In this document: positions 3,336 to 9,106 of the stretch, piece by piece
Numbering within the stretch: position 1 is the first letter of the stretch
Layout: every line of letters begins with the position of its first letter
Virus record (IMG/VR): IMGVR_UViG_3300014862_000005
Span: 1 to 24,180 of that record
Reading direction: 5' to 3' (one strand)
From: a virus
Lineage: Duplodnaviria > Caudoviricetes
Length of the DNA stretch: 24,180 nucleotides
Notes under the pieces: model-generated
The model's database searches: none
What the model saw: the letters and a program-made list of their open reading frames with translations, nothing else
What the model was told of the DNA's origin: nothing
Translations under genes and position numbers: made by a program

Positions 3336-3743
3336 TCAGGCAGGCGCTTCAGCCCGCTCCAGGAGGAAGGGCCGGCTCATGTTGTGCGGCACGTACCACT
3401 TCCGCGGCCGGAGGTAGGAGAAGATCATCCCGACCGACGCGGATGGGGCCACAGTGAGCACGTCGTCAGTCGGTACCGTTTCGTCGGTCACCGTCATCGT
3501 GAACAGGCCAAACCCGAACGGGCTGTCCTCGTCCTCCAACGCCACCATCACCCGCGGGCCCGTATCGTGGAGCAGCATCTTCGCGAAGACCTCGATGAAC
3601 GGCTCGCCATCGCCCGCCATGATGATGTGCTGCCCACCGGCCCATCCGGACCGAGTGAGGTAGGCCCTGAACTCGGCGTTTCGCAGGAGCTTGGCCAGCG
3701 CGAAGCCAGCTGCCGCCGGCCGGCTGTTGATCCCTACGCTCAT
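3336..3743 (-). CDS. Hypothetical protein, coupled partner of upstream gene
   Basis: ATGA overlap with the stop of 3740..4168; GGAGG upstream. Confidence 0.65.
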   Translation of the reverse strand: MSVGINSRPAAAGFALAKLLRNAEFRAYLTRSGWAGGQHIIMAGDGEPFIEVFAKMLLHDTGPRVMVALEDEDSPFGFGLFTMTVTDETVPTDDVLTVAPSASVGMIFSYLRPRKWYVPHNMSRPFLLERAEAPA

Positions 3744-4168
3744 TGCTTCCACCTCCGGATGGACTCTTCCCACTCTGCCTGCATCAAGTCAATGCCTTCG
3801 TCGTACCAGCGACCGATCAGATCGGTCCCACCTGCTTGCGAGATGAACTCGAGGTCGGTGACCATCCCGACGTCATCGTCCGGTTTGTCCTGACGAAGCT
3901 GGTGGCGATGAACCATGTTGTGCTCGGTGTCGATCCGGCAGATCTGCACCCAGGAGCCGGACATCCAGGCCATCTGCATTGCCGCGAACTCCACCACCTG
4001 CCACTGCTGCCACAAGACGAGGCGCGAGCGGATCTCGTGGCCGGCGGCCAGAACGACCGGGATCCCTGGCCATTCCTCACACTCCTCCGGTGGCGGTGGA
4101 TCAAACGGTGGCTCAGGAGGAGGGTAGATCGTCAGGTCAGCCACCCGCCGCCTTGCCCTACCCGTCAT
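3740..4168 (-). CDS. Hypothetical protein resembling DUF7718/TumE-like toxin families
   Basis: ICRIDTEHNMVHRH resembles the R-x-D...H...HxH motif of these families (from memory). RBS GAGGGG before ATG 4168; TATGAT -10-like box near 4200. Confidence 0.55.
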   Translation of the reverse strand: MTGRARRRVADLTIYPPPEPPFDPPPPEECEEWPGIPVVLAAGHEIRSRLVLWQQWQVVEFAAMQMAWMSGSWVQICRIDTEHNMVHRHQLRQDKPDDDVGMVTDLEFISQAGGTDLIGRWYDEGIDLMQAEWEESIRRWKQ

Positions 4169-4282
4169 CTCAATCTTCCCCTCGGTAACGAGGCGCTCAT
4201 CATAGAGTGACGGATACCACTGCCGACTGTAGTCCTTTCGGCTCAATCGGGTGGATCAAGCACGAAAGCACGCCCACTTCGA

Positions 4283-4492
4283 TCACCGGGACGCTCCTCG
4301 AACGCCCCGCGAGATCTTGTAGACCGCGTCGCGGGTGTAGCCGGATGCCTTGATGACCTCGGCCAACGGCGCGCCCGCATCCAATGCCTCCCGGACTGCG
4401 GCGACAAGCTGGGGCCGGAGCTCGTCGAGCTCGGCGCGGAGCCTCTGGGAGCGCTTGCCGAGGCGGCGGAGTGGCTCGATGTCGTGCGTCAT
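4283..4492 (-). CDS. Small HTH DNA-binding protein (putative autorepressor)
   Basis: AVREALDAGAPLAEVIKASGYTRDAVYKI is HTH-like; the ATG lies 7 nt after a TATGCT -10 box, suggesting a leaderless mRNA. Confidence 0.8.
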   Translation of the reverse strand: MTHDIEPLRRLGKRSQRLRAELDELRPQLVAAVREALDAGAPLAEVIKASGYTRDAVYKISRGVRGASR

Positions 4493-4499
4493 AGCACTC

Positions 4500-4598
4500 A
4501 GCATACGTGTCTGTAGACGCGTATGGCCAAACGGTGTAGAGAACTGACCGAAAGTACTACCCTCGCGTATAGCCGTATGCAGACGCGTCTGCTACTCT
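4500..4598. promoter_or_regulatory. Divergent promoters, each with an AGACGCGT-containing palindromic operator in the spacer
   Basis: Minus: TTGGCC-19-TATGCT with near-palindrome CATACGTGTCT-GT-AGACGCGTATG (4502-4525). Plus: TAGCCG-17-TACTCT with perfect palindrome GCAGACGCGTCTGC (4579-4592). Confidence 0.65.
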
Positions 4599-4608
4599 GG
4601 AACTTAGA

Positions 4609-4647
4609 GGGGAAAAGAAGGCCCCGAAAATCTTGACAACTGAACAG
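4609..4647 (+). promoter_or_regulatory. rrn-leader-like boxB/boxA antitermination element
   Basis: GGGG-purine loop-CCCC hairpin (4609-4625) then TCTTGACAACTGAACAG, resembling Gram-positive rrn boxA (TCTTTGAAAACTGAACA). Confidence 0.5.
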
Positions 4648-4817
4648 CGATAGCAAAGACCGAGCCGGGACGAGATCCCCGGCACCCAGCCCGAGGCGAA
4701 CGACGCAGCGCAGAACGCACTCCACGCGGACCGGCGCCCGGGCAAGGACTTCAAGGCCTCGAAACCAAGAGGTCCACGGACGCCCCCATCCGAGGGGCCA
4801 CGGGTTAGGAGCCCGCC

Positions 4818-4976
4818 ATGGACACCAAGGCCTGCGAGATCTGCAAGACCACCGAGACCGAGACCAACCGCGTGGCGCCCGTCAACCTGGGTGCCCGGCC
4901 GGCCCTCGTCGACGTGTGTGACATCTGCTGCGAACTCCTCGCCGCGGACCTTGCCGTTCTCTCCGCTCTGAAGTGA
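4818..4976 (+). CDS. 52-aa zinc-finger-like protein (not in ORF track)
   Basis: RBS AGGAG; MDTKACEICK...VDVCDICCELL has two CxxC motifs. Confidence 0.7.
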   Translation: MDTKACEICKTTETETNRVAPVNLGARPALVDVCDICCELLAADLAVLSALK

Positions 4977-5052
4977 CCGAGTCCGGCAGGTGCTGTGAGG
5001 CCCTGCCGGGCACTCACCCCCACGTCAGGTGGGGCGGCGACAGGAGGTCGCC

Positions 5053-5223
5053 ATGACCGAAACGCCCAGCAAGCAGTCGCTTCTCGCCAAGTACGACCGG
5101 CTCTGCTCCGACATCAACTACGCCGAGCAGGCCGGGCTGAGTAACGAGTTCCTCCGCCGGCACTACGCGGCCGCGGAGAGGCTGAACGCGAAGGCGGTCG
5201 CGGCAGGCTACGGCCCGCTGTGA
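5053..5223 (+). CDS. 56-aa helical hypothetical protein
   Basis: Strong RBS AGGAGG; flanked by hairpins. Confidence 0.75.
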   Translation: MTETPSKQSLLAKYDRLCSDINYAEQAGLSNEFLRRHYAAAERLNAKAVAAGYGPL

Positions 5224-5257
5224 CGGTCACGCCCGCCGGGAGCGTCATCCCGGCACC

Positions 5258-5363
5258 TGCCCCGAGCACTGGTAGTGCAACGAGCGACCTGGACTGGCTG
5301 GACGCGGACGCGGCGTCGGGTTCGGGAAGCGCAAGGAGGGTCGGTTCGAAACCGACCGGGGCA
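5258..5363 (+). ncRNA. tRNA-like element 1 with expanded anticodon-arm domain
   Basis: Acceptor TGCCCCG/CGGGGCA, D arm GCAC-TGGTA-GTGC, T arm GTCGG-TTCGAAA-CCGAC; about 60 nt replace the anticodon and variable arms. Confidence 0.65.
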
Positions 5364-5382
5364 CGAAAGGAGGTGGTCCACA

Positions 5383-5526
5383 GTGGAGGCCATCATCAAC
5401 AAGAGGTGCTGTGTCCAGTGCGACAACGGTGGAGCCGGGTCCCTTGAGGATCCGCCCATCGTTCCGTGGTGGATGCAGATGGTGGAGGAGCGCACCGACG
5501 AGGAGCGCGAGCTCACCGAATCCTGA
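5383..5526 (+). CDS. 47-aa hypothetical protein, acidic C-terminus
   Basis: RBS AAAGGAGG 9 nt before GTG; CCVQC motif. Confidence 0.65.
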   Translation: MEAIINKRCCVQCDNGGAGSLEDPPIVPWWMQMVEERTDEERELTES

Positions 5527-5579
5527 CACCTCCGGTCCGGCCGGTCTCGTACCGGTCGGAGCCGTGGCCGTCAGGCCAA
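5522..5579 (+). repeat. Structured intergenic module, copy 1
   Basis: CCTGACACCTCCGGT-[hairpin]-GCCGTGGCCGTCAGGCCAA; CCTGAC pairs with GTCAGG. Confidence 0.85.
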
Positions 5580-5620
5580 ACCGAGCCAAGCGGATCTTGG
5601 CCAGTCGGAGGGAGACCGAC

Positions 5621-5839
5621 ATGAGGTACACCACGAAGGACGACGCGATCGAGCAGGCGTTCCCCGAGGACGTCCGCGAGCCGGGCTTCGACGTCGATGC
5701 GATCTTCGCCGCGACGTTCGAGTACCGGGTCGACAAGGACGCCGACGGGAACGAGCTGCTCAACACGGCCGGCTTCGAGCAGGTCGTGAGCGAAGAGCGG
5801 TTCTGGGAACTCACCCAGGAGCACGCCCGCGAGTCCTGA
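5621..5839 (+). CDS. 72-aa acidic phage protein
   Basis: RBS GGAGGGAG; D/E-rich MRYTTKDDAIEQA...FWEL. Confidence 0.8.
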   Translation: MRYTTKDDAIEQAFPEDVREPGFDVDAIFAATFEYRVDKDADGNELLNTAGFEQVVSEERFWELTQEHARES

Positions 5840-5844
5840 CCGGA

Positions 5845-5873
5845 CAGTTCCCCGCGCACGCGGGGTTGGACCT
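5845..5873 (+). CRISPR. Solitary type I-E CRISPR repeat (candidate Racr)
   Basis: CAGTTCCCCGCGCACGCGGGGTTGGACCT aligns without gaps to the I-E repeat (E. coli GAGTTCCCCGCGCCAGCGGGGATAAACCG), with the hairpin and 8-nt tail. No second copy or cas gene seen in the window. Confidence 0.75.
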
Positions 5874-5933
5874 GACACCTCCGGTGGGGCTCGGCCCGAA
5901 AGGTCCGAGCCACCGCCGTGGCCGTCAGGCCAA
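5871..5933 (+). repeat. Structured intergenic module, copy 2
   Basis: Same 15-nt 5' end and 19-nt 3' end as 5522-5579, but a different internal GAAA-capped hairpin. Confidence 0.85.
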
Positions 5934-6116
5934 GGCCCAGCCGTCGAGCCTCAATCGACGCCCAGGGATGCCGACGGGTAACACGGCAGCCGCGACGCCA
6001 GCGTAGGGGCGAGGGAAGACGACGCCACAGAAGGTCTCTACCGGTTCCGGGGAATCAGGAGAACGGAGCAGCCGCGGGAATCGTGGCGCCGCCCGCCAGA
6101 GCGCATCTGGCACCTC

Positions 6117-6186
6117 GGGTGGTCGCAATAAGGAGTGCGCCAGGCACCGGGCCTGGTCGGCGGTTCGAATCCGCATCCATCCACCA
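6117..6186 (+). ncRNA. tRNA-like element 2 (non-canonical, ends in ACCA)
   Basis: GGGTGG/CCATCC acceptor plus ACCA, D arm CGCA-ATAAGGAG-TGCG, CCAGGC-ACCGG-GCCTGG arm lacking U33, T arm GCGG-TTCGAAT-CCGC. Confidence 0.7.
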
Positions 6187-6335
6187 ACACTCTTCACAGC
6201 GCAGCGACGTCGAGCCCAGCTCCGTCGGCGACGCCCCGAGGCCCCCGGTCCGGCTCGACAGCCGAGCGGGAGCCGAGGCCCTCGGGCCGAGCATCCCACC
6301 CCCCAACCAGGGGGGTCTATGGGGAGGGAGACCCC

Positions 6336-6920
6336 ATGAACATGCTCGAAGCTCCGTTCCGTGTGCTCGGCCAGATCGGCCCGCGACTCATCATGATCGC
6401 GGCCATGGTCACGAGCTACGACACACAGCACCGTCTCTTCCTTTCGTGGGGCGTGGATGGCCTAACGGCCGCCATCGCCCCGGCCGTGGTCGACCTTCTG
6501 GCGATCACGTGCGCGGAGATCCTGCATGACCAGTGGGTGATCCGTGGCAAGGGCTCGGCCGGGTTCGTCCTGGCCGTTGCCGGGCTTGGCTCCGCGTTCG
6601 CCAACTGGCTGGCCGGGGTCACGGTCGGGAGCAAGGTTGTGCATGCGTCGATGGTTCTGGCGTACGTGCTTGCCGAGTTGGTTGTCGGCCGCGTGCGACG
6701 GGTCATGGAACAGCAGACAGCGGCCGTGCAGGCGGTCACACCGGAGGTAACCGCGGATGAGGCGGCGAGCCCGGACCTGCCGGAGGCGCCGGTTTCGCCA
6801 GCGGTGCCCGGCAAATCTCGCGGGGACTACGGTCCACGCGACCCGGAGCGCGGCTACGCTCCGAGTACTGTGCGGAAGAAGCGGGCTGTTGCGAAAGTGG
6901 CGGCCACGCCGACGGAGTAG
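6336..6920 (+). CDS. DUF2637/SpdA-like multi-TM membrane protein
   Basis: SY..Q..L...G....A...P..VD pattern and S..AN with four hydrophobic segments; RBS GGAGGGAG. Confidence 0.7.
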   Translation: MNMLEAPFRVLGQIGPRLIMIAAMVTSYDTQHRLFLSWGVDGLTAAIAPAVVDLLAITCAEILHDQWVIRGKGSAGFVLAVAGLGSAFANWLAGVTVGSKVVHASMVLAYVLAELVVGRVRRVMEQQTAAVQAVTPEVTADEAASPDLPEAPVSPAVPGKSRGDYGPRDPERGYAPSTVRKKRAVAKVAATPTE

Positions 6921-6966
6921 TCCCTGCCCGGACCGAGAGGTACGGGTAGCCGCTCGGTAACCTAAG

Positions 6967-7008
6967 AGCCCCCGATCCTGTCTACCCGTCAGGATCGGGG
7001 GCTTTTTT
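6967..7008 (+). terminator. Intrinsic terminator
   Basis: 14-bp stem AGCCCCCGATCCTG/CAGGATCGGGGGCT followed by a T tract. Confidence 0.85.
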
Positions 7009-7237
7009 GTGCCCTTTGAAAGGAGCCTCCACTGTGGACACTCGTGGCGTTGCTACTTCGCTACTTTCGCCCAGCATTCGGGCTCGGCTCCACTGTGGAC
7101 ACAGGTGCGACGAATGTAGCGGGAGAGCTTCAACCCTTGACGGCGTCGTCGGCCCTTCGCTGTCCGCTGCAGCGGCGTTTCTCGGCATCGCGACGACTGG
7201 GCTCAGGATACCCCCGAACACCGACAGGCCCCGAACG

Positions 7238-8785
7238 TCAGAACGGCCACGTCTGGTTCTGGCCGGCTTCGAGCAGCGGGATGAGTTTGAACGCAGCGTC
7301 GGTCAGTCCGGCGAACGTGTGCCGGTTCACTGCGCCTGGCCCGTGGCCGAGCCGGTAGCCAGCGAGGTTCCACGTGTAGACCGGGATGGTCGCGGGCACG
7401 AAACCGCCCGGGTTGCCGTCGTGCGCCTGCTCGTCGGTGACGATGACGACCCGATCGTGGCGGGCGTAGTGGGCCTGGACAGCGGCCGCCGTGTACGTGC
7501 CGCCGAGGTTGGTAAACCGCTCCTGCACGATGCGCAGCAGCGAGTCGCCGGCCTTGACCGGGACCAGCGCCGACTTGGTGCCGAACTGGACGAGGTCCAC
7601 GTGGCCGACGTTGCGCAGCGCCAGCGCGGCACCGAAGACGGCCGCCGTGTCGGCGCGGTTCAAGCCCGACCGGGCCGAGACGCCATCGAACATGGAGCCC
7701 GACCGGTCGACGAGGACGAGCGTCCGGCCGGGGAGTTCCGGCACGTTGGCCAGCGACAGGTTCAGCGCCACTTCGAGGCTGTGGCCCCACCGCAGCGACG
7801 GGACCGCCTTGTACGCAGCGAGGAACCGGAACGGAAACTGCCGCGACTTGGCCACGCGCGCCGGGTCGGTGAGCAGTGCCATCACCTCGTGGGCGACACC
7901 ATCTCGGATGCCGGCCTCGTCGAAGTTGCGCAGGTTCCGCAGCAGCGCCATGTAGCCCATCGACGGGATGAGCGCCTCCCACAGTGCCGCCTTGTCCACC
8001 TCGGTCCCGGCCAGGGACAGGGCGTCCTCCCACGTCATCCCGGCCGCCCGCAACGCATCAGCGTCGAGCAGCGGGCCGGAGTGATGCCGGGCCGCCTCGC
8101 GCAGTTGGGCGTTCGCGGCGAGCATCGTCAGCGACTCGGCGCACGTCTGGTCGCGGTTGTGCCGGCGGGCCAGCGCGCATGCGAACAGATCCCCCTGCCA
8201 CGGGGCAGACGGCGACGGGTGGGTGAGGTCGAGGACGTCGGCGAACCGGAAGCCCTTGCTGTTGGTGTCGTACTTGAGCAGGGCGTACTCGTTGTAGAGC
8301 CGCTGCACCGCGTCGGCGATACCGCGCTTGACCGGCTTCGGGATCGCCCGGCCGTACCGAGAGGTCCAGTACGCCAGCGCCTCGCCGGGCTCGTCGGCAC
8401 GCTGAAGCACCGAGGCGACCATCTGGCGGGCGCCAGGGACCTTCGCCGCGAGCAGCGCCCGGGCCGCCTCTAGCGCACCGACGAGGGATGCGGAGCGCAT
8501 GTTGCCGTCGGAGCGGAGCCAGCGCAGGAACCGGCCGGTCCAGTCCGGGTCCTCGGTCGCGACCTGCGCGACGAGACGCTCGTACCGTTCGTCGCGGGCC
8601 TCGGCCTTCTCGTAGAAGGTGTTCTCGCCGACCATGTTCGACACGGCGAGCAGGAAGAGTTCGCCCTTGGCGTCGCGCGCGTAGCCGGGTGCGCCCTCAT
8701 GGGTGAGGGCGGACGGCGTGGCCACGGTGAGGATCGGGCTCGTACCGGACGCGGCGCGGGTGTCCCTGACGTTGAACTTCGACAC
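7238..8785 (-). CDS. rsr: TROVE-domain RNA-binding protein, Ro60/Rsr ortholog with C-terminal vWA domain
   Basis: ELFLLAV..M..E.TFYE, GNMRS, MGYMALLRNLRN, SRQFPFRF; vWA MIDAS LVDRSGSM and IVTDEQ. GTG start (MSKFN) with GGAAGG RBS. Confidence 0.95.
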   Translation of the reverse strand: MSKFNVRDTRAASGTSPILTVATPSALTHEGAPGYARDAKGELFLLAVSNMVGENTFYEKAEARDERYERLVAQVATEDPDWTGRFLRWLRSDGNMRSASLVGALEAARALLAAKVPGARQMVASVLQRADEPGEALAYWTSRYGRAIPKPVKRGIADAVQRLYNEYALLKYDTNSKGFRFADVLDLTHPSPSAPWQGDLFACALARRHNRDQTCAESLTMLAANAQLREAARHHSGPLLDADALRAAGMTWEDALSLAGTEVDKAALWEALIPSMGYMALLRNLRNFDEAGIRDGVAHEVMALLTDPARVAKSRQFPFRFLAAYKAVPSLRWGHSLEVALNLSLANVPELPGRTLVLVDRSGSMFDGVSARSGLNRADTAAVFGAALALRNVGHVDLVQFGTKSALVPVKAGDSLLRIVQERFTNLGGTYTAAAVQAHYARHDRVVIVTDEQAHDGNPGGFVPATIPVYTWNLAGYRLGHGPGAVNRHTFAGLTDAAFKLIPLLEAGQNQTWPF

Positions 8786-8819
8786 GGAAACGGCCCTTCC
8801 CATCGAGAGAGGGCCGCAG

Positions 8820-8984
8820 TTCAGATGTGGGTGCCCGAGATCAAAGTCGACGTCGGAGGTTTCGTACCTTTGCGCTACCAGGCTGCGCTACATCCCCGAC
8901 GAGGCGGGGACGGTGGGATTTGAACCCACGACCCAAGGTTCCCTGTGAAGTATCCGGCACCTTCGCACCGGGCACCCATCTGAA
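8820..8984 (-). ncRNA. yrlA: YrlA-type Y RNA
   Basis: Terminal stem GGGTGCCCGGTGCGA...TTGATCTCGGGCACCC (Ro-binding helix) encloses a permuted tRNA domain: T arm GTGGG-TTCAAAT-CCCAC, closed acceptor-like stem, D arm TAGCGCAGCCTGGTAGCGC. Directly upstream of Ro60. Confidence 0.9.
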
Positions 8985-8990
8985 GTTGTA

Positions 8991-9068
8991 GCGTCTCCCG
9001 AGATCAAGTCGCCTGCGGTCTTTATTCAGCAAGAGTGAAGTATCCGCAAGCTGCGCACCGGGAGGTGC
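8991..9068 (-). ncRNA. Second, short Y RNA (YrlB-like, no tRNA domain)
   Basis: Shares CCCGGTGCG, GGATACTTCAC and TTGATCTCGGG with the adjacent YrlA; its ends pair. Confidence 0.8.
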
Positions 9069-9075
9069 AGGGCTG

Positions 9076-9106
9076 ACGGTAGCACCGAGCCGCGAGAGAT
9101 CGCCAA
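9076..9106 (-). promoter_or_regulatory. Promoter for Y RNA-Y RNA-Ro60 operon
   Basis: TTGGCG-19-TACCGT with TGn extended -10; predicted +1 at about 9068 coincides with the 5' end of the short Y RNA. Confidence 0.55.

Follow-up and report, generated by a model that had tools for sequence, protein, structure and literature searches.

The early operon of phage T7 places small host-directed genes on one transcript, with RNase III sites of the R1.1 type between them. An internal loop is described as restricting RNase III to a single cut, after which a 3′ hairpin remains as protection, and GC pairs at certain positions as blocking the E. coli enzyme (PMC1540722). For RNase P, the part of the substrate that is read is the acceptor stem together with the T-stem–loop, and acceptor, T-stem and T-loop are reported to be sufficient (PMC11143913). 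Other phages carry repeated stem–loops, such as the PeSLs of T4-type phages, which are reported to mediate shuffling (Arbiol et al. 2010, PMC2839356), or solitary CRISPR repeats near acr genes, termed Racrs (Camara-Wilpert et al. 2023, PMC10651486), whilst 254 bacteria and 22 phages are on record as carrying Rsr–Y RNA (Chen et al. 2014, PMC4201824). In the literature searched, no phage family was found to combine tRNA top halves, stop-embedded hairpins and a CRISPR repeat in the role of interchangeable gene joints.

Organization of the operon and its relatives

The window analysed here is a 24 180 nt stretch of phage DNA, within which a plus-strand unit (4593–7011) lies divergent from a small HTH gene accompanied by operator palindromes. 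The unit contains a boxA-like leader, four ORFs of 47–72 aa and a DUF2637 gene. One hairpin is present three times in it, alongside two tRNA-like RNAs and a lone type I-E repeat. Its source is a temperate phage, likely of actinomycetes, although both host and expression timing are inferred, because there is no isolated phage among the relatives. One RNA run returned scattered low-depth contigs only, spread over the whole phage and with no RNA ends among them.

The same plan is common to more than 20 uncultured phage contigs, where it lies between integrase and lysis genes and comprises a divergent repressor, an operator-overlapped promoter, a structured boxA-like leader, small ORFs that vary between contigs, RNA joints, a DUF2637 gene and a terminator. 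No two of the 24 loci examined (referred to by L numbers below) have an identical gene list; gene orders are mosaic, with breakpoints at the modules. Every feature listed in a preliminary description of this region is present in the sequence, and its proposal of small ORFs and structured RNAs in one operon under repressor control is borne out in related phages, with structures conserved and compensatory changes present. The lack of structural conservation that it named as a refuting result was therefore not encountered.

Repressor, promoter and leader

The small HTH repressor gene (4283–4492, minus strand) matches PHROG 686 (E = 8e-9), with no Pfam match, and runs divergently from the operon; its mRNA is probably leaderless, with an alternative start at 4504. 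Homologues hold the equivalent divergent position in L110, L130, L125 and L117. An operator-like site in the leftward promoter (4511–4528) shares the AGACGCGT core with a perfect 14 bp palindrome (4579–4592), a putative operator abutting a TG-extended −10 (the whole at 4579–4598, plus strand), and with one mismatch allowed the core matches these two sites only in the 24 kb window. The −10 itself (TGcTACTCT, 4590–4598) was identified by eye, as a sigma-70 consensus scan returned no promoters because the −35 is weak. Relatives possess equivalent −10 elements but different palindromes, their repressor slot being filled by different repressor genes, each with different palindromes of its own. Some of these repressors are RHH-like as judged by eye. 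Inverted repeats over the promoter, as predicted binding sites, together with an HTH gene give the layout of an acr–aca locus.

The structured leader (4605–4817, plus strand) comprises a small 5′ hairpin, a boxA-like motif downstream of it (4632–4645), an internal-loop hairpin (~4690–4743) and the start module of ORF A. The layout of this candidate boxA and part of its sequence fit the B. subtilis consensus given in PMC13753749. Upstream of the stop-embedded hairpin in 23 loci, the box motif gave nine sense and two antisense matches. The internal-loop hairpin is conserved, with compensatory change at 5 of its 20 predicted pairs in an eight-sequence alignment. At the far end of the operon, an intrinsic terminator (6964–7011, plus strand; fold z −6.2) consists of 17 nt arms (6964–6980 and 6990–7006) followed by a T run, and was missed by the automated terminator scan.

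Small ORFs

ORFs A–D encode 52, 56, 47 and 72 aa, respectively, all on the plus strand and with strong SDs. ORF A (4818–4976) has two CxxC pairs and a homologue in L018, and is preceded by GGGTTAGGAGCCC, which shows 12/13 identity to the cluster K SAS consensus as given by Pope et al. 2011 (PMC3203893). Homologues of ORF B (5053–5223) occur in L023, L089 and L096 within other gene orders, and ORF C (5383–5526), the TGA of which sits within the 5′ arm of hairpin 1, has an N-terminal homologue in L089. In the predicted fold of the ORF D start module (5588–5620, plus strand), a short hairpin immediately 5′ of the ATG presents the SD in its loop; an exact 19-mer from this module recurs in 10 contigs, across 14 viral stretches. 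ORF D (5621–5839) is acidic and belongs to a conserved family with 19 homologues; its structure model is confident (pLDDT 91.6), with no fold match in the PDB and with matches in BFVD to uncharacterised phage proteins only. The final gene, here and usually in relatives, encodes a DUF2637 membrane protein (6336–6920, plus strand; Pfam PF10935, E = 2.5e-9). This gene does not figure in the preliminary description, nor do the third hairpin and the 185 nt block described below.

Across the 24 loci, 69 small cassette ORFs fall into 50 families, and 57 of them are net acidic by raw count. None scored above the Pfam cut-off, a single one was assigned to a PHROG (of unknown function), and no known acr, aca or anti-defence family was recognised among the 69 or for the HTH protein, such that the proposed Aca identity of the latter finds no support in family matches. 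The cargo of small, mostly acidic orphans probably serves host takeover or counter-defence, as candidate roles.

tRNA-like modules and the conserved RNA block

A short hairpin ending in GGCACC is followed by tRNA-like RNA 1 (5235–5363 in all, RNA 1 at 5258–5363, plus strand), which displays a 7 bp acceptor, a D-like hairpin, a long irregular arm and a T-arm, has no encoded CCA, and possesses homologues in L022 and L031. tRNA-like RNA 2 (6117–6186, plus strand) comprises a 6 bp acceptor, a D-arm, a 7 nt loop arm and a T-arm, with a very short variable region and an encoded ACCA. Alignment with its homologue in L109 reveals two compensatory changes within the acceptor and a single one within the D-stem, the loop arm being identical whilst the stems covary. 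Both RNAs are unrecognised by ARAGORN and Rfam (RF00005), and both pass a test for acceptor plus T-arm, for which shuffled sequence gave a mean of 0.35 hits. The same test found 17 sense and no antisense folds in 48 962 nt; when applied to another 18 loci as a second set, it gave 10 sense and one antisense.

What the modules retain is the acceptor and T-arm; the anticodon arm is missing or variable in shape, its canonical form being absent from RNA 1 and from most modules of relatives, and the 7 nt loop of RNA 2 lacks U33. Functional tRNA genes were rejected on the absence of an ARAGORN or Rfam cloverleaf and of a conserved canonical anticodon arm. The idea that these RNAs offset anticodon nucleases also fits poorly with this pattern of retention. 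The geometry of an RNase P substrate, namely an acceptor stacked on a T-stem with T-loop, is present in both, RNA 1 having 7+5 bp and RNA 2 having 6+4 bp that include mismatches; approximately half of the modules have a 6 bp acceptor, one below the 12 bp ruler. CCA is encoded in 5 of 16 intergenic modules. Tandem modules occur in L089 and L109, and the L130 operon contains ~700 nt of RNA modules, with no SD-led small ORF evident by eye. Between hairpin 2 and RNA 2 lies the 185 nt structured block (5932–6115, plus strand), which ends in a GGCACC hairpin, is 81–96 % identical in L031, L101 and L054, and shows compensatory change at 4 of 50 predicted pairs across four sequences. Rfam holds no family for these RNA joints.

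The stop-embedded hairpin family

Three copies of one hairpin are found on the plus strand of the operon, at 5521–5576 (copy 1; fold z −3.3), 5870–5930 (copy 2; fold z −4.9) and 6234–6287 (copy 3; covariance model 37.3 bits, E = 7.5e-8), the last being without a stop codon and altered on both sides of the outer stem. The family, known from 23 distinct loci including the window, is limited to the operon in all five near-complete records. The hairpin is an imperfect inverted repeat of 55–66 nt. Its outer stem is conserved and takes in the stop codon of the ORF upstream; it also has an internal loop, a top that varies and a bulged base that shifts or vanishes between copies. Thirty distinct copies are 96 % paired, with compensatory change at all seven upper-stem pairs; the lower stem shows U–G/C–G interchange at three pairs, its invariance being partly a product of search patterns that required that stem. 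In 24 of 32 copies, the TGA of the hairpin is the stop codon of an SD-led ORF (the other frames giving 0 and 2), and the ORFs closed in this way (n = 26) belong to 19 families. Folding energy shows no sense preference, the sense strand being better in 10 of 29 and G–U pairs numbering 34 versus 37.

An intergenic hairpin with an internal loop between two helices, supported by covariation, has the layout of an RNase III site, for which cleavage is predicted; the stems are GC-rich, and the rules at hand are those of the E. coli enzyme, which may not be those of the host. No promoter-like site or U-tract was seen in the hairpins, which therefore lack the promoter–terminator pairing of a PeSL.

The lone type I-E repeat

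A solitary type I-E CRISPR repeat-like unit (5845–5873, plus strand) begins 5 nt past the ORF D stop and overlaps hairpin 2 with its 3′ end. It matches plasmid array repeats at 25/29 and 24/29 positions, with the first handle base altered, and is in sense orientation, for which the side of the leader in the L102 array served as the reference. This intergenic unit is the single match in the window at ≤3 mismatches and, the L022 copy aside, the next-best match in 349 kb scanned is 20/29. It was found in 2 of 23 loci, with no copies in 18 further loci and no exact matches to its core in viral contigs. The same ORF D occurs in L061 without it, in comparison with which the unit appears as a 36 bp insert with CCTGAC duplicated. 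Neither a promoter of its own nor a conserved guide-like flank accompanies it. Its best BLAST score is 42–43 bits against plasmids, flanks included and under settings that differ from those of SRUFinder, where the cut-off is 41.1 bits at 90 % coverage against its own repeat library. From its sequence, the repeat is a fair Racr candidate.

The neighbouring Ro60–Y RNA locus

Converging on the operon is a Ro60/Rsr gene with TROVE and vWA domains (7238–8803, minus strand; TROVE E = 1e-19), the probable start of which is a GTG at 8785. Upstream on the same strand, as at other Rsr–Y RNA loci, lies a YrlA-like Y RNA (8832–8975), for which Rfam YrlA gives 38 bits at 8844–8960 against a gathering cut-off of 69, followed by a second, YrlB-like hairpin (8995–9066, minus strand) that repeats the 5′ and 3′ stem motifs of YrlA and is conserved in L090, L001 and L002. 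Both Y RNAs have stems that can be aligned with their counterparts at five further Ro60 loci.

Possible roles of the RNA joints

Conservation of the joints as folds is observed directly, as is the sense-strand location of the tRNA-like ones (one antisense case in the second set). The explanation preferred here, given about an even chance of being correct, is that of a repressor-gated early operon in which host RNase P and RNase III cleave the RNA joints, these joints serving at the same time as seams for the exchange of genes. Upon DNA entry, with repressor absent, the unit would fire strongly and Nus-type antitermination would carry polymerase across the non-coding stretches, until HTH protein bound at both operators brought about shut-off. 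The acceptor plus T-arm modules would serve as RNase P substrates and the internal-loop hairpins as T7-type RNase III sites, cutting of which would yield small stable RNAs as well as monocistronic messages with protected ends and, on each, a strong SD left accessible. Where the host has a type I-E system, Cas6e could also cut at the lone repeat. Judging from the gene orders, the repeated joints may further act as recombination seams for gene swaps. Against this explanation stand the folding energies of the hairpin, which do not favour the sense strand, the GC richness of its stems, the 6 bp acceptors in about half of the tRNA-like modules and the encoding of CCA in 5 of 16. Also counting against it are the tandem modules and the ~700 nt of RNA modules in L130, which exceed the needs of punctuation.

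Those same tandem modules and the almost ORF-free operon would suit a possible, if less probable, situation in which the released RNAs are themselves the product, with tRNA top halves and a Racr acting as decoys beside small counter-defence proteins. This is compatible with the proposed RNase processing, and is the idea of the preliminary description minus Ro60. The top halves would bait defence enzymes that recognise either the acceptor end or the elbow, with Cas6e/Cas7e soaked up by the lone repeat; its 25/29 identity to genuine array repeats, its sense orientation, its altered first handle base and a solitary state like that of Racrs all point this way, as do the identical loop arm of RNA 2 on covarying stems, the predominance of acidic ORFs (57/69, raw count) and a repressor gating that resembles Aca control as described in bioRxiv 10.64898/2026.07.27.740549. 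Such a role sits uneasily, however, with the rarity of the repeat (2/23 loci, 0/18 further loci, no exact core match in viral contigs), its absence beside ORF D in L061, its placement 5 nt past a stop codon with neither promoter nor guide-like flank, the anticodon arms that are not conserved across modules, and the lack of an Acr or anti-defence family among the 69 ORFs or of a solved-structure match for ORF D. A scheme uniting both, wherein RNase P, RNase III and Cas6e cut one early transcript and the released top-half mimics and Racr titrate tRNA-end-targeting toxins and Cascade, is doubtful. It is unlikely that, instead of being nuclease sites, the modules act chiefly at the DNA level as PeSL-like shuffling cassettes or as pause/termination signals: mosaic gene orders that break at the modules, a hairpin that folds equally well on both strands and the shuffling ascribed to PeSLs would be expected of such elements, but a hairpin without promoter or U-tract and T-loop folds numbering 17 sense to 0 antisense would not, and homologous recombination would have no need of compensatory changes. 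The geometry of the hairpin is one that we take to resemble attC, with its imperfect repeat of 55–66 nt, outer stem including the stop codon, internal loop and variable top, and the 36 bp insert with duplicated CCTGAC might be read likewise; nevertheless, a single-stranded recombination site in an integron-like cassette array is very unlikely, given that some copies have the bulged base elsewhere or lack it, the outer stem of copy 3 differs on both sides, many gene junctions are built on other modules and the integrase is a generic phage-integrase match only. Least probable of all, and scarcely credible, is a single system in which the phage Ro60 takes the cassette RNAs as its clients. The two loci are adjacent and convergent in the window, and L090 likewise carries both, but 9 of 10 related records are without TROVE, including all five that are at least 90 % complete, the hairpin family was not found at E<0.1 within 7 kb in seven Ro60 loci, L096 has a tRNA-like gene in the Ro60 slot, and Ro60–Y RNA pairs are commonly described alone in bacteria and phages (PMC4201824). 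The link to Ro60 drawn previously is thereby lost, and the Ro60–Y RNA pair is an independent neighbour, a separate accessory locus.

If the joints serve as punctuation only, the operon would be a modest but useful variant of T7 and PeSL biology; if the counter-defence reading is true, it would be a plug-and-play array of phage gene cassettes built upon RNA joints. Orphan genes with early expression could be harvested by using the joints as a sequence handle, which has yielded 50 families from 24 loci, and these orphans are a likely pool of new actinophage counter-defence proteins, comparable to the use of aca genes in acr discovery. The modules of 40–106 nt would be naturally occurring, minimal substrates of RNase P; the repeat is a candidate type I-E Racr.

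Comparison with known systems

With the T7 system the operon shares a single, probably early transcript of small, probably host-directed genes and intergenic internal-loop hairpins; a lone cut leaving a protective 3′ hairpin, as described in PMC1540722, is predicted here too. It differs in that the hairpin overlaps the stop codon and is reused with many unrelated genes, and in that hairpins alternate with tRNA-like modules and a CRISPR repeat in a temperate phage with a divergent repressor. Repeated intergenic stem–loops, a region of non-essential genes and putative shuffling seams are shared with PeSLs as portrayed in PMC2839356; those, however, combine promoter and terminator, whereas the present modules are without both and include acceptor plus T-arm folds. 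Like the Racrs described in PMC10651486, the repeat is a lone, intergenic, sense phage repeat with an intact hairpin, but it lies between a stop codon and a hairpin inside a polycistron, with no promoter of its own, no recognised acr neighbour and presence in only 2/23 loci. A small HTH gene, inverted repeats over the promoter and small orphan genes recall acr–aca loci (bioRxiv 10.64898/2026.07.27.740549), although here the repressor is divergent and matches no known Aca or Acr family. The SD-containing start element before small non-structural genes is shared with the SAS/ESAS of cluster K as reported (PMC3203893), but a single such copy exists in the operon, at ORF A, the other genes using different hairpin-framed SDs. 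For the Ro60 neighbour, two Y RNAs upstream on the same strand are as described for Rsr with YrlA/YrlB (PMC4201824), with no difference of note, making it a further member of that group. Finally, acceptor and T-stem–loop are shared with the non-tRNA phage RNase P substrates M3 and C4 and with minimal substrates (PMC11143913), whereas the operon family harbours many distinct versions (40–106 nt) as interchangeable joints. Each ingredient has precedent, and it is for their mixed use as interchangeable gene joints that no published account was found.

Operon organisation and its recurrence in other phages

The operon (4593-7011, +) contains every feature that the preliminary description had listed for it, and three more besides: a fifth gene, encoding a DUF2637 protein (6336-6920), a third copy of the hairpin, and a 185-nt block that is conserved (5932-6115). 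Its promoter and terminator were identified by reading and folding of the sequence; consensus scans of the window detected neither, and ARAGORN and Rfam made no call within the operon. Rather than being a one-off island, the operon belongs to a family of 23 distinct hairpin loci, including that of the window. A pattern derived from two hairpin copies retrieved 8 viral, 17 metagenome and 1 genome stretches. With the pattern relaxed, 68 viral stretches were obtained, for the most part coincidental matches without the inner stem, which were dropped. The set was then reached by collapsing duplicates, excluding L045 (a chance match), L021 (the contig of the window itself) and L020 (which nearly duplicates L063), adding L089, and counting the window. 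Two independent patterns, for the start module and the leader core, returned 14 and 10 stretches, respectively, amongst which the hairpin model matched L110 and L113, with a weak match to L125.

Where flanks are long enough, the loci follow a common plan. The 5′ part comprises a divergent small repressor gene (in the window an HTH gene, 4283-4492, -), palindromes over a TG-extended -10, a boxA-like motif and a structured leader, whilst the 3′ part holds variable small ORFs, RNA modules, a DUF2637-type gene and a terminator. The boxA-like motif lies upstream of the hairpin 9 times in sense and twice in antisense orientation amongst the 23 loci, although a number of these do not extend far enough to include it. 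In one uncultured phage contig (L089:3939-4020) the motif does not occupy the 5′ end but follows both a divergent copy of the hairpin and the first small ORF. Three related loci (L031, L101 and L061) share a structured leader of about 400 nt with a T-arm at its end, for which the copy in L010 has no Rfam match. A 13-15-nt element at the start of ORF C (5376-5390) recurs inverted twice just beyond the terminator (7025-7039 and 7088-7100), the two copies being 61 nt apart, and similar GTCCAC/GTGGAC motifs lie 3′ of the terminator in several relatives.

Across 24 loci there are 69 small ORFs (median 70 aa) in 50 families, with no two gene lists alike, and ORFs A-D of the window (52, 56, 47 and 72 aa) are each found elsewhere beside different neighbours. 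None of the 69 passes a Pfam cut-off, and one matches a PHROG of unknown function. For ORF D, peptide patterns revealed no relative in viral contigs and Foldseek no match in the PDB; its best ESM Atlas score (0.83) was to unnamed clusters, and its best BFVD hit (E 1.3e-3) to an uncharacterised protein.

The stop-embedded hairpin

The hairpin, present in the window at 5521-5576, 5870-5930 and 6234-6287, consists of two helices separated by an internal loop. In 30 distinct copies, 96% of cells are paired and the upper stem displays compensatory change at 7/7 pairs; the covariation score was reached by 0/500 shuffles, a control inflated by kinship, and the lower helix is almost invariant, which is partly an effect of search design. 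Structural conservation in related phages, the lack of which the preliminary description had listed among its refuting outcomes, is present. Copy 3 of the window is altered on both sides of the outer stem, so that the fold there counts for more than the sequence. The hairpin TGA closes a Shine-Dalgarno (SD)-led ORF in 24 of 32 copies, compared with 0 and 2 for the other frames, and 26 ORFs in 19 families end in this way. Folding energy shows no preference for either strand (G-U strand test), whereas interchange of U-G and C-G at three pairs points to the sense strand. Matches are confined to the operon in all five near-complete records, and comparison with isolated phage records yielded 25-nt chance matches only. 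In shape, the hairpin would suit a single-cut RNase III site, of the kind described in PMC1540722, and is a candidate for one.

tRNA-like modules

The window carries two tRNA-like RNAs, RNA 1 (5258-5363), with homologues in L022 and L031, and RNA 2 (6117-6186), whose homologue in L109 differs by three compensatory changes. We searched for a T-loop with its stem and, directly adjoining it 3′, an acceptor strand. The 48,962 nt of cassette sequence contained 17 matches on the sense strand and none on the antisense strand; 20 shuffles averaged 0.35, and 125,724 nt from outside cassettes contained 5. In another 18 loci there were 10 sense matches and 1 antisense match, a few of them apparently due to chance. 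One of the 17 falls within an ORF; of the 16 intergenic modules, seven are preceded by a short hairpin ending GGCAC, five begin no more than about 10 nt from a stop codon, and five encode CCA. Module length ranges from 40 to 106 nt. The conserved portion is the one that RNase P recognises (PMC11143913).

Phage and likely host

The window, which is the entire 24,180-nt virus record, reads as a temperate phage fragment, with a tyrosine integrase (23-880, +) and lysis, tail and connector genes from 9.2 kb on (-). An actinomycete host is suggested by its GC content of about 67%, a DUF397 gene, Ro60 matches to Gordonia and Streptomyces phages, and lone-repeat matches mostly to Streptomyces plasmids. 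The sole genome match to the hairpin pattern (L033) is in a MAG labelled Chloroflexota, on a possibly mis-binned contig, and was left out of host naming. The 50,697 isolated phage records contained no relative of ORF D or of the HTH protein. The HTH gene is followed immediately by a DUF7718 ORF with its closely coupled partner (3336-4246, -), a pair-like arrangement missing in the relatives examined.

Proposed processing and alternative readings

The most likely reading, to which we give about an even chance, is that of a repressor-gated early operon. The repressor would gate early transcription, and host RNase P and RNase III would cleave the transcript at the joints, yielding protected single-gene messages with exposed SD sequences alongside small stable RNAs; the joints may double as recombination seams. 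ORFs A, B and D and the DUF2637 gene each have a hairpin-framed SD. Whilst architecture, conservation, strand bias and mosaicism are direct observations, we infer the timing, repression, antitermination, cleavage and recombination. One RNA run (X2) contains 21% of the words of the sequence, but its contigs are short and of shallow depth (2-6) over early and late genes alike; they are therefore indistinguishable from DNA carry-over, and they show no transcript ends.

That the RNA modules act as decoys is possible, if clearly less probable, and is compatible with processing. Tandem tRNA-like modules (L089 and L109), together with an operon of the same plan whose RNA modules take up about 700 nt and which lacks any evident SD-led small ORF ahead of its last gene (L130:2950-3660, -), suggest that the RNAs may be important in themselves. 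The earlier idea that they offset anticodon nucleases is disfavoured, as the anticodon arm is missing or irregular, which argues against replacement of cleaved tRNAs. An unlikely alternative is that the modules are DNA or transcription cassettes akin to the PeSL stem-loop cassettes of T4-type phages. It is highly improbable that the hairpins are attC-like sites. Least probable of all is that the cassette RNAs are Ro60 clients. The adjacent Ro60 gene (7238-8803, -) and its two Y RNAs are genuine, and Ro60-Y RNA loci have been reported from 254 bacteria and 22 phages (PMC4201824). However, TROVE occurs in 1/10 related records (0/5 near-complete ones) and the hairpin is absent from 7/7 other phage Ro60 loci, placing Ro60 outside the operon system of which it had been proposed as a possible part. 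In one relative (L015:2334-2421), the slot of Y RNA-Y RNA-Ro60 is taken by a tRNA-like gene whose anticodon arm is long. Our search, beyond which lay most subscription journals, found precedents but no description of this operon family.

The lone CRISPR repeat-like unit

The type I-E repeat-like unit at 5845-5873 (+) matches real array repeats at 25/29 and 24/29 positions in the transcribed orientation, and probably derives from a CRISPR repeat. Elsewhere in 349,372 nt scanned the best score is ≤20/29, except for a 24/29 copy in L022. The notion that it is simply a CCCCGC hairpin of the kind found throughout this operon family was rejected, such hairpins scoring ≤20/29. It occurs in 2 of 23 loci, each time behind ORF D, whilst in L061 ORF D is present and the repeat is not; a contig of run X5 extends across ORF D and the repeat with few changes. 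In L090 (oriented 5537; L014 about 3495-3525) there is another I-E-like repeat, distinct from this one, which has a loop of 5 nt and is antisense to the operon. Separately, Streptomyces phage Piccadilly (L103:3370-3690) has six degenerate I-E-like repeats in succession within an intergenic region, unannotated, and related isolated phages contain matches to them. The lone repeat is a candidate Racr. It lies inside a polycistron in which no acr gene was recognised, whereas PMC10651486 describes RacrIF1 as having a promoter of its own and Racrs as enriched in the vicinity of acr genes.
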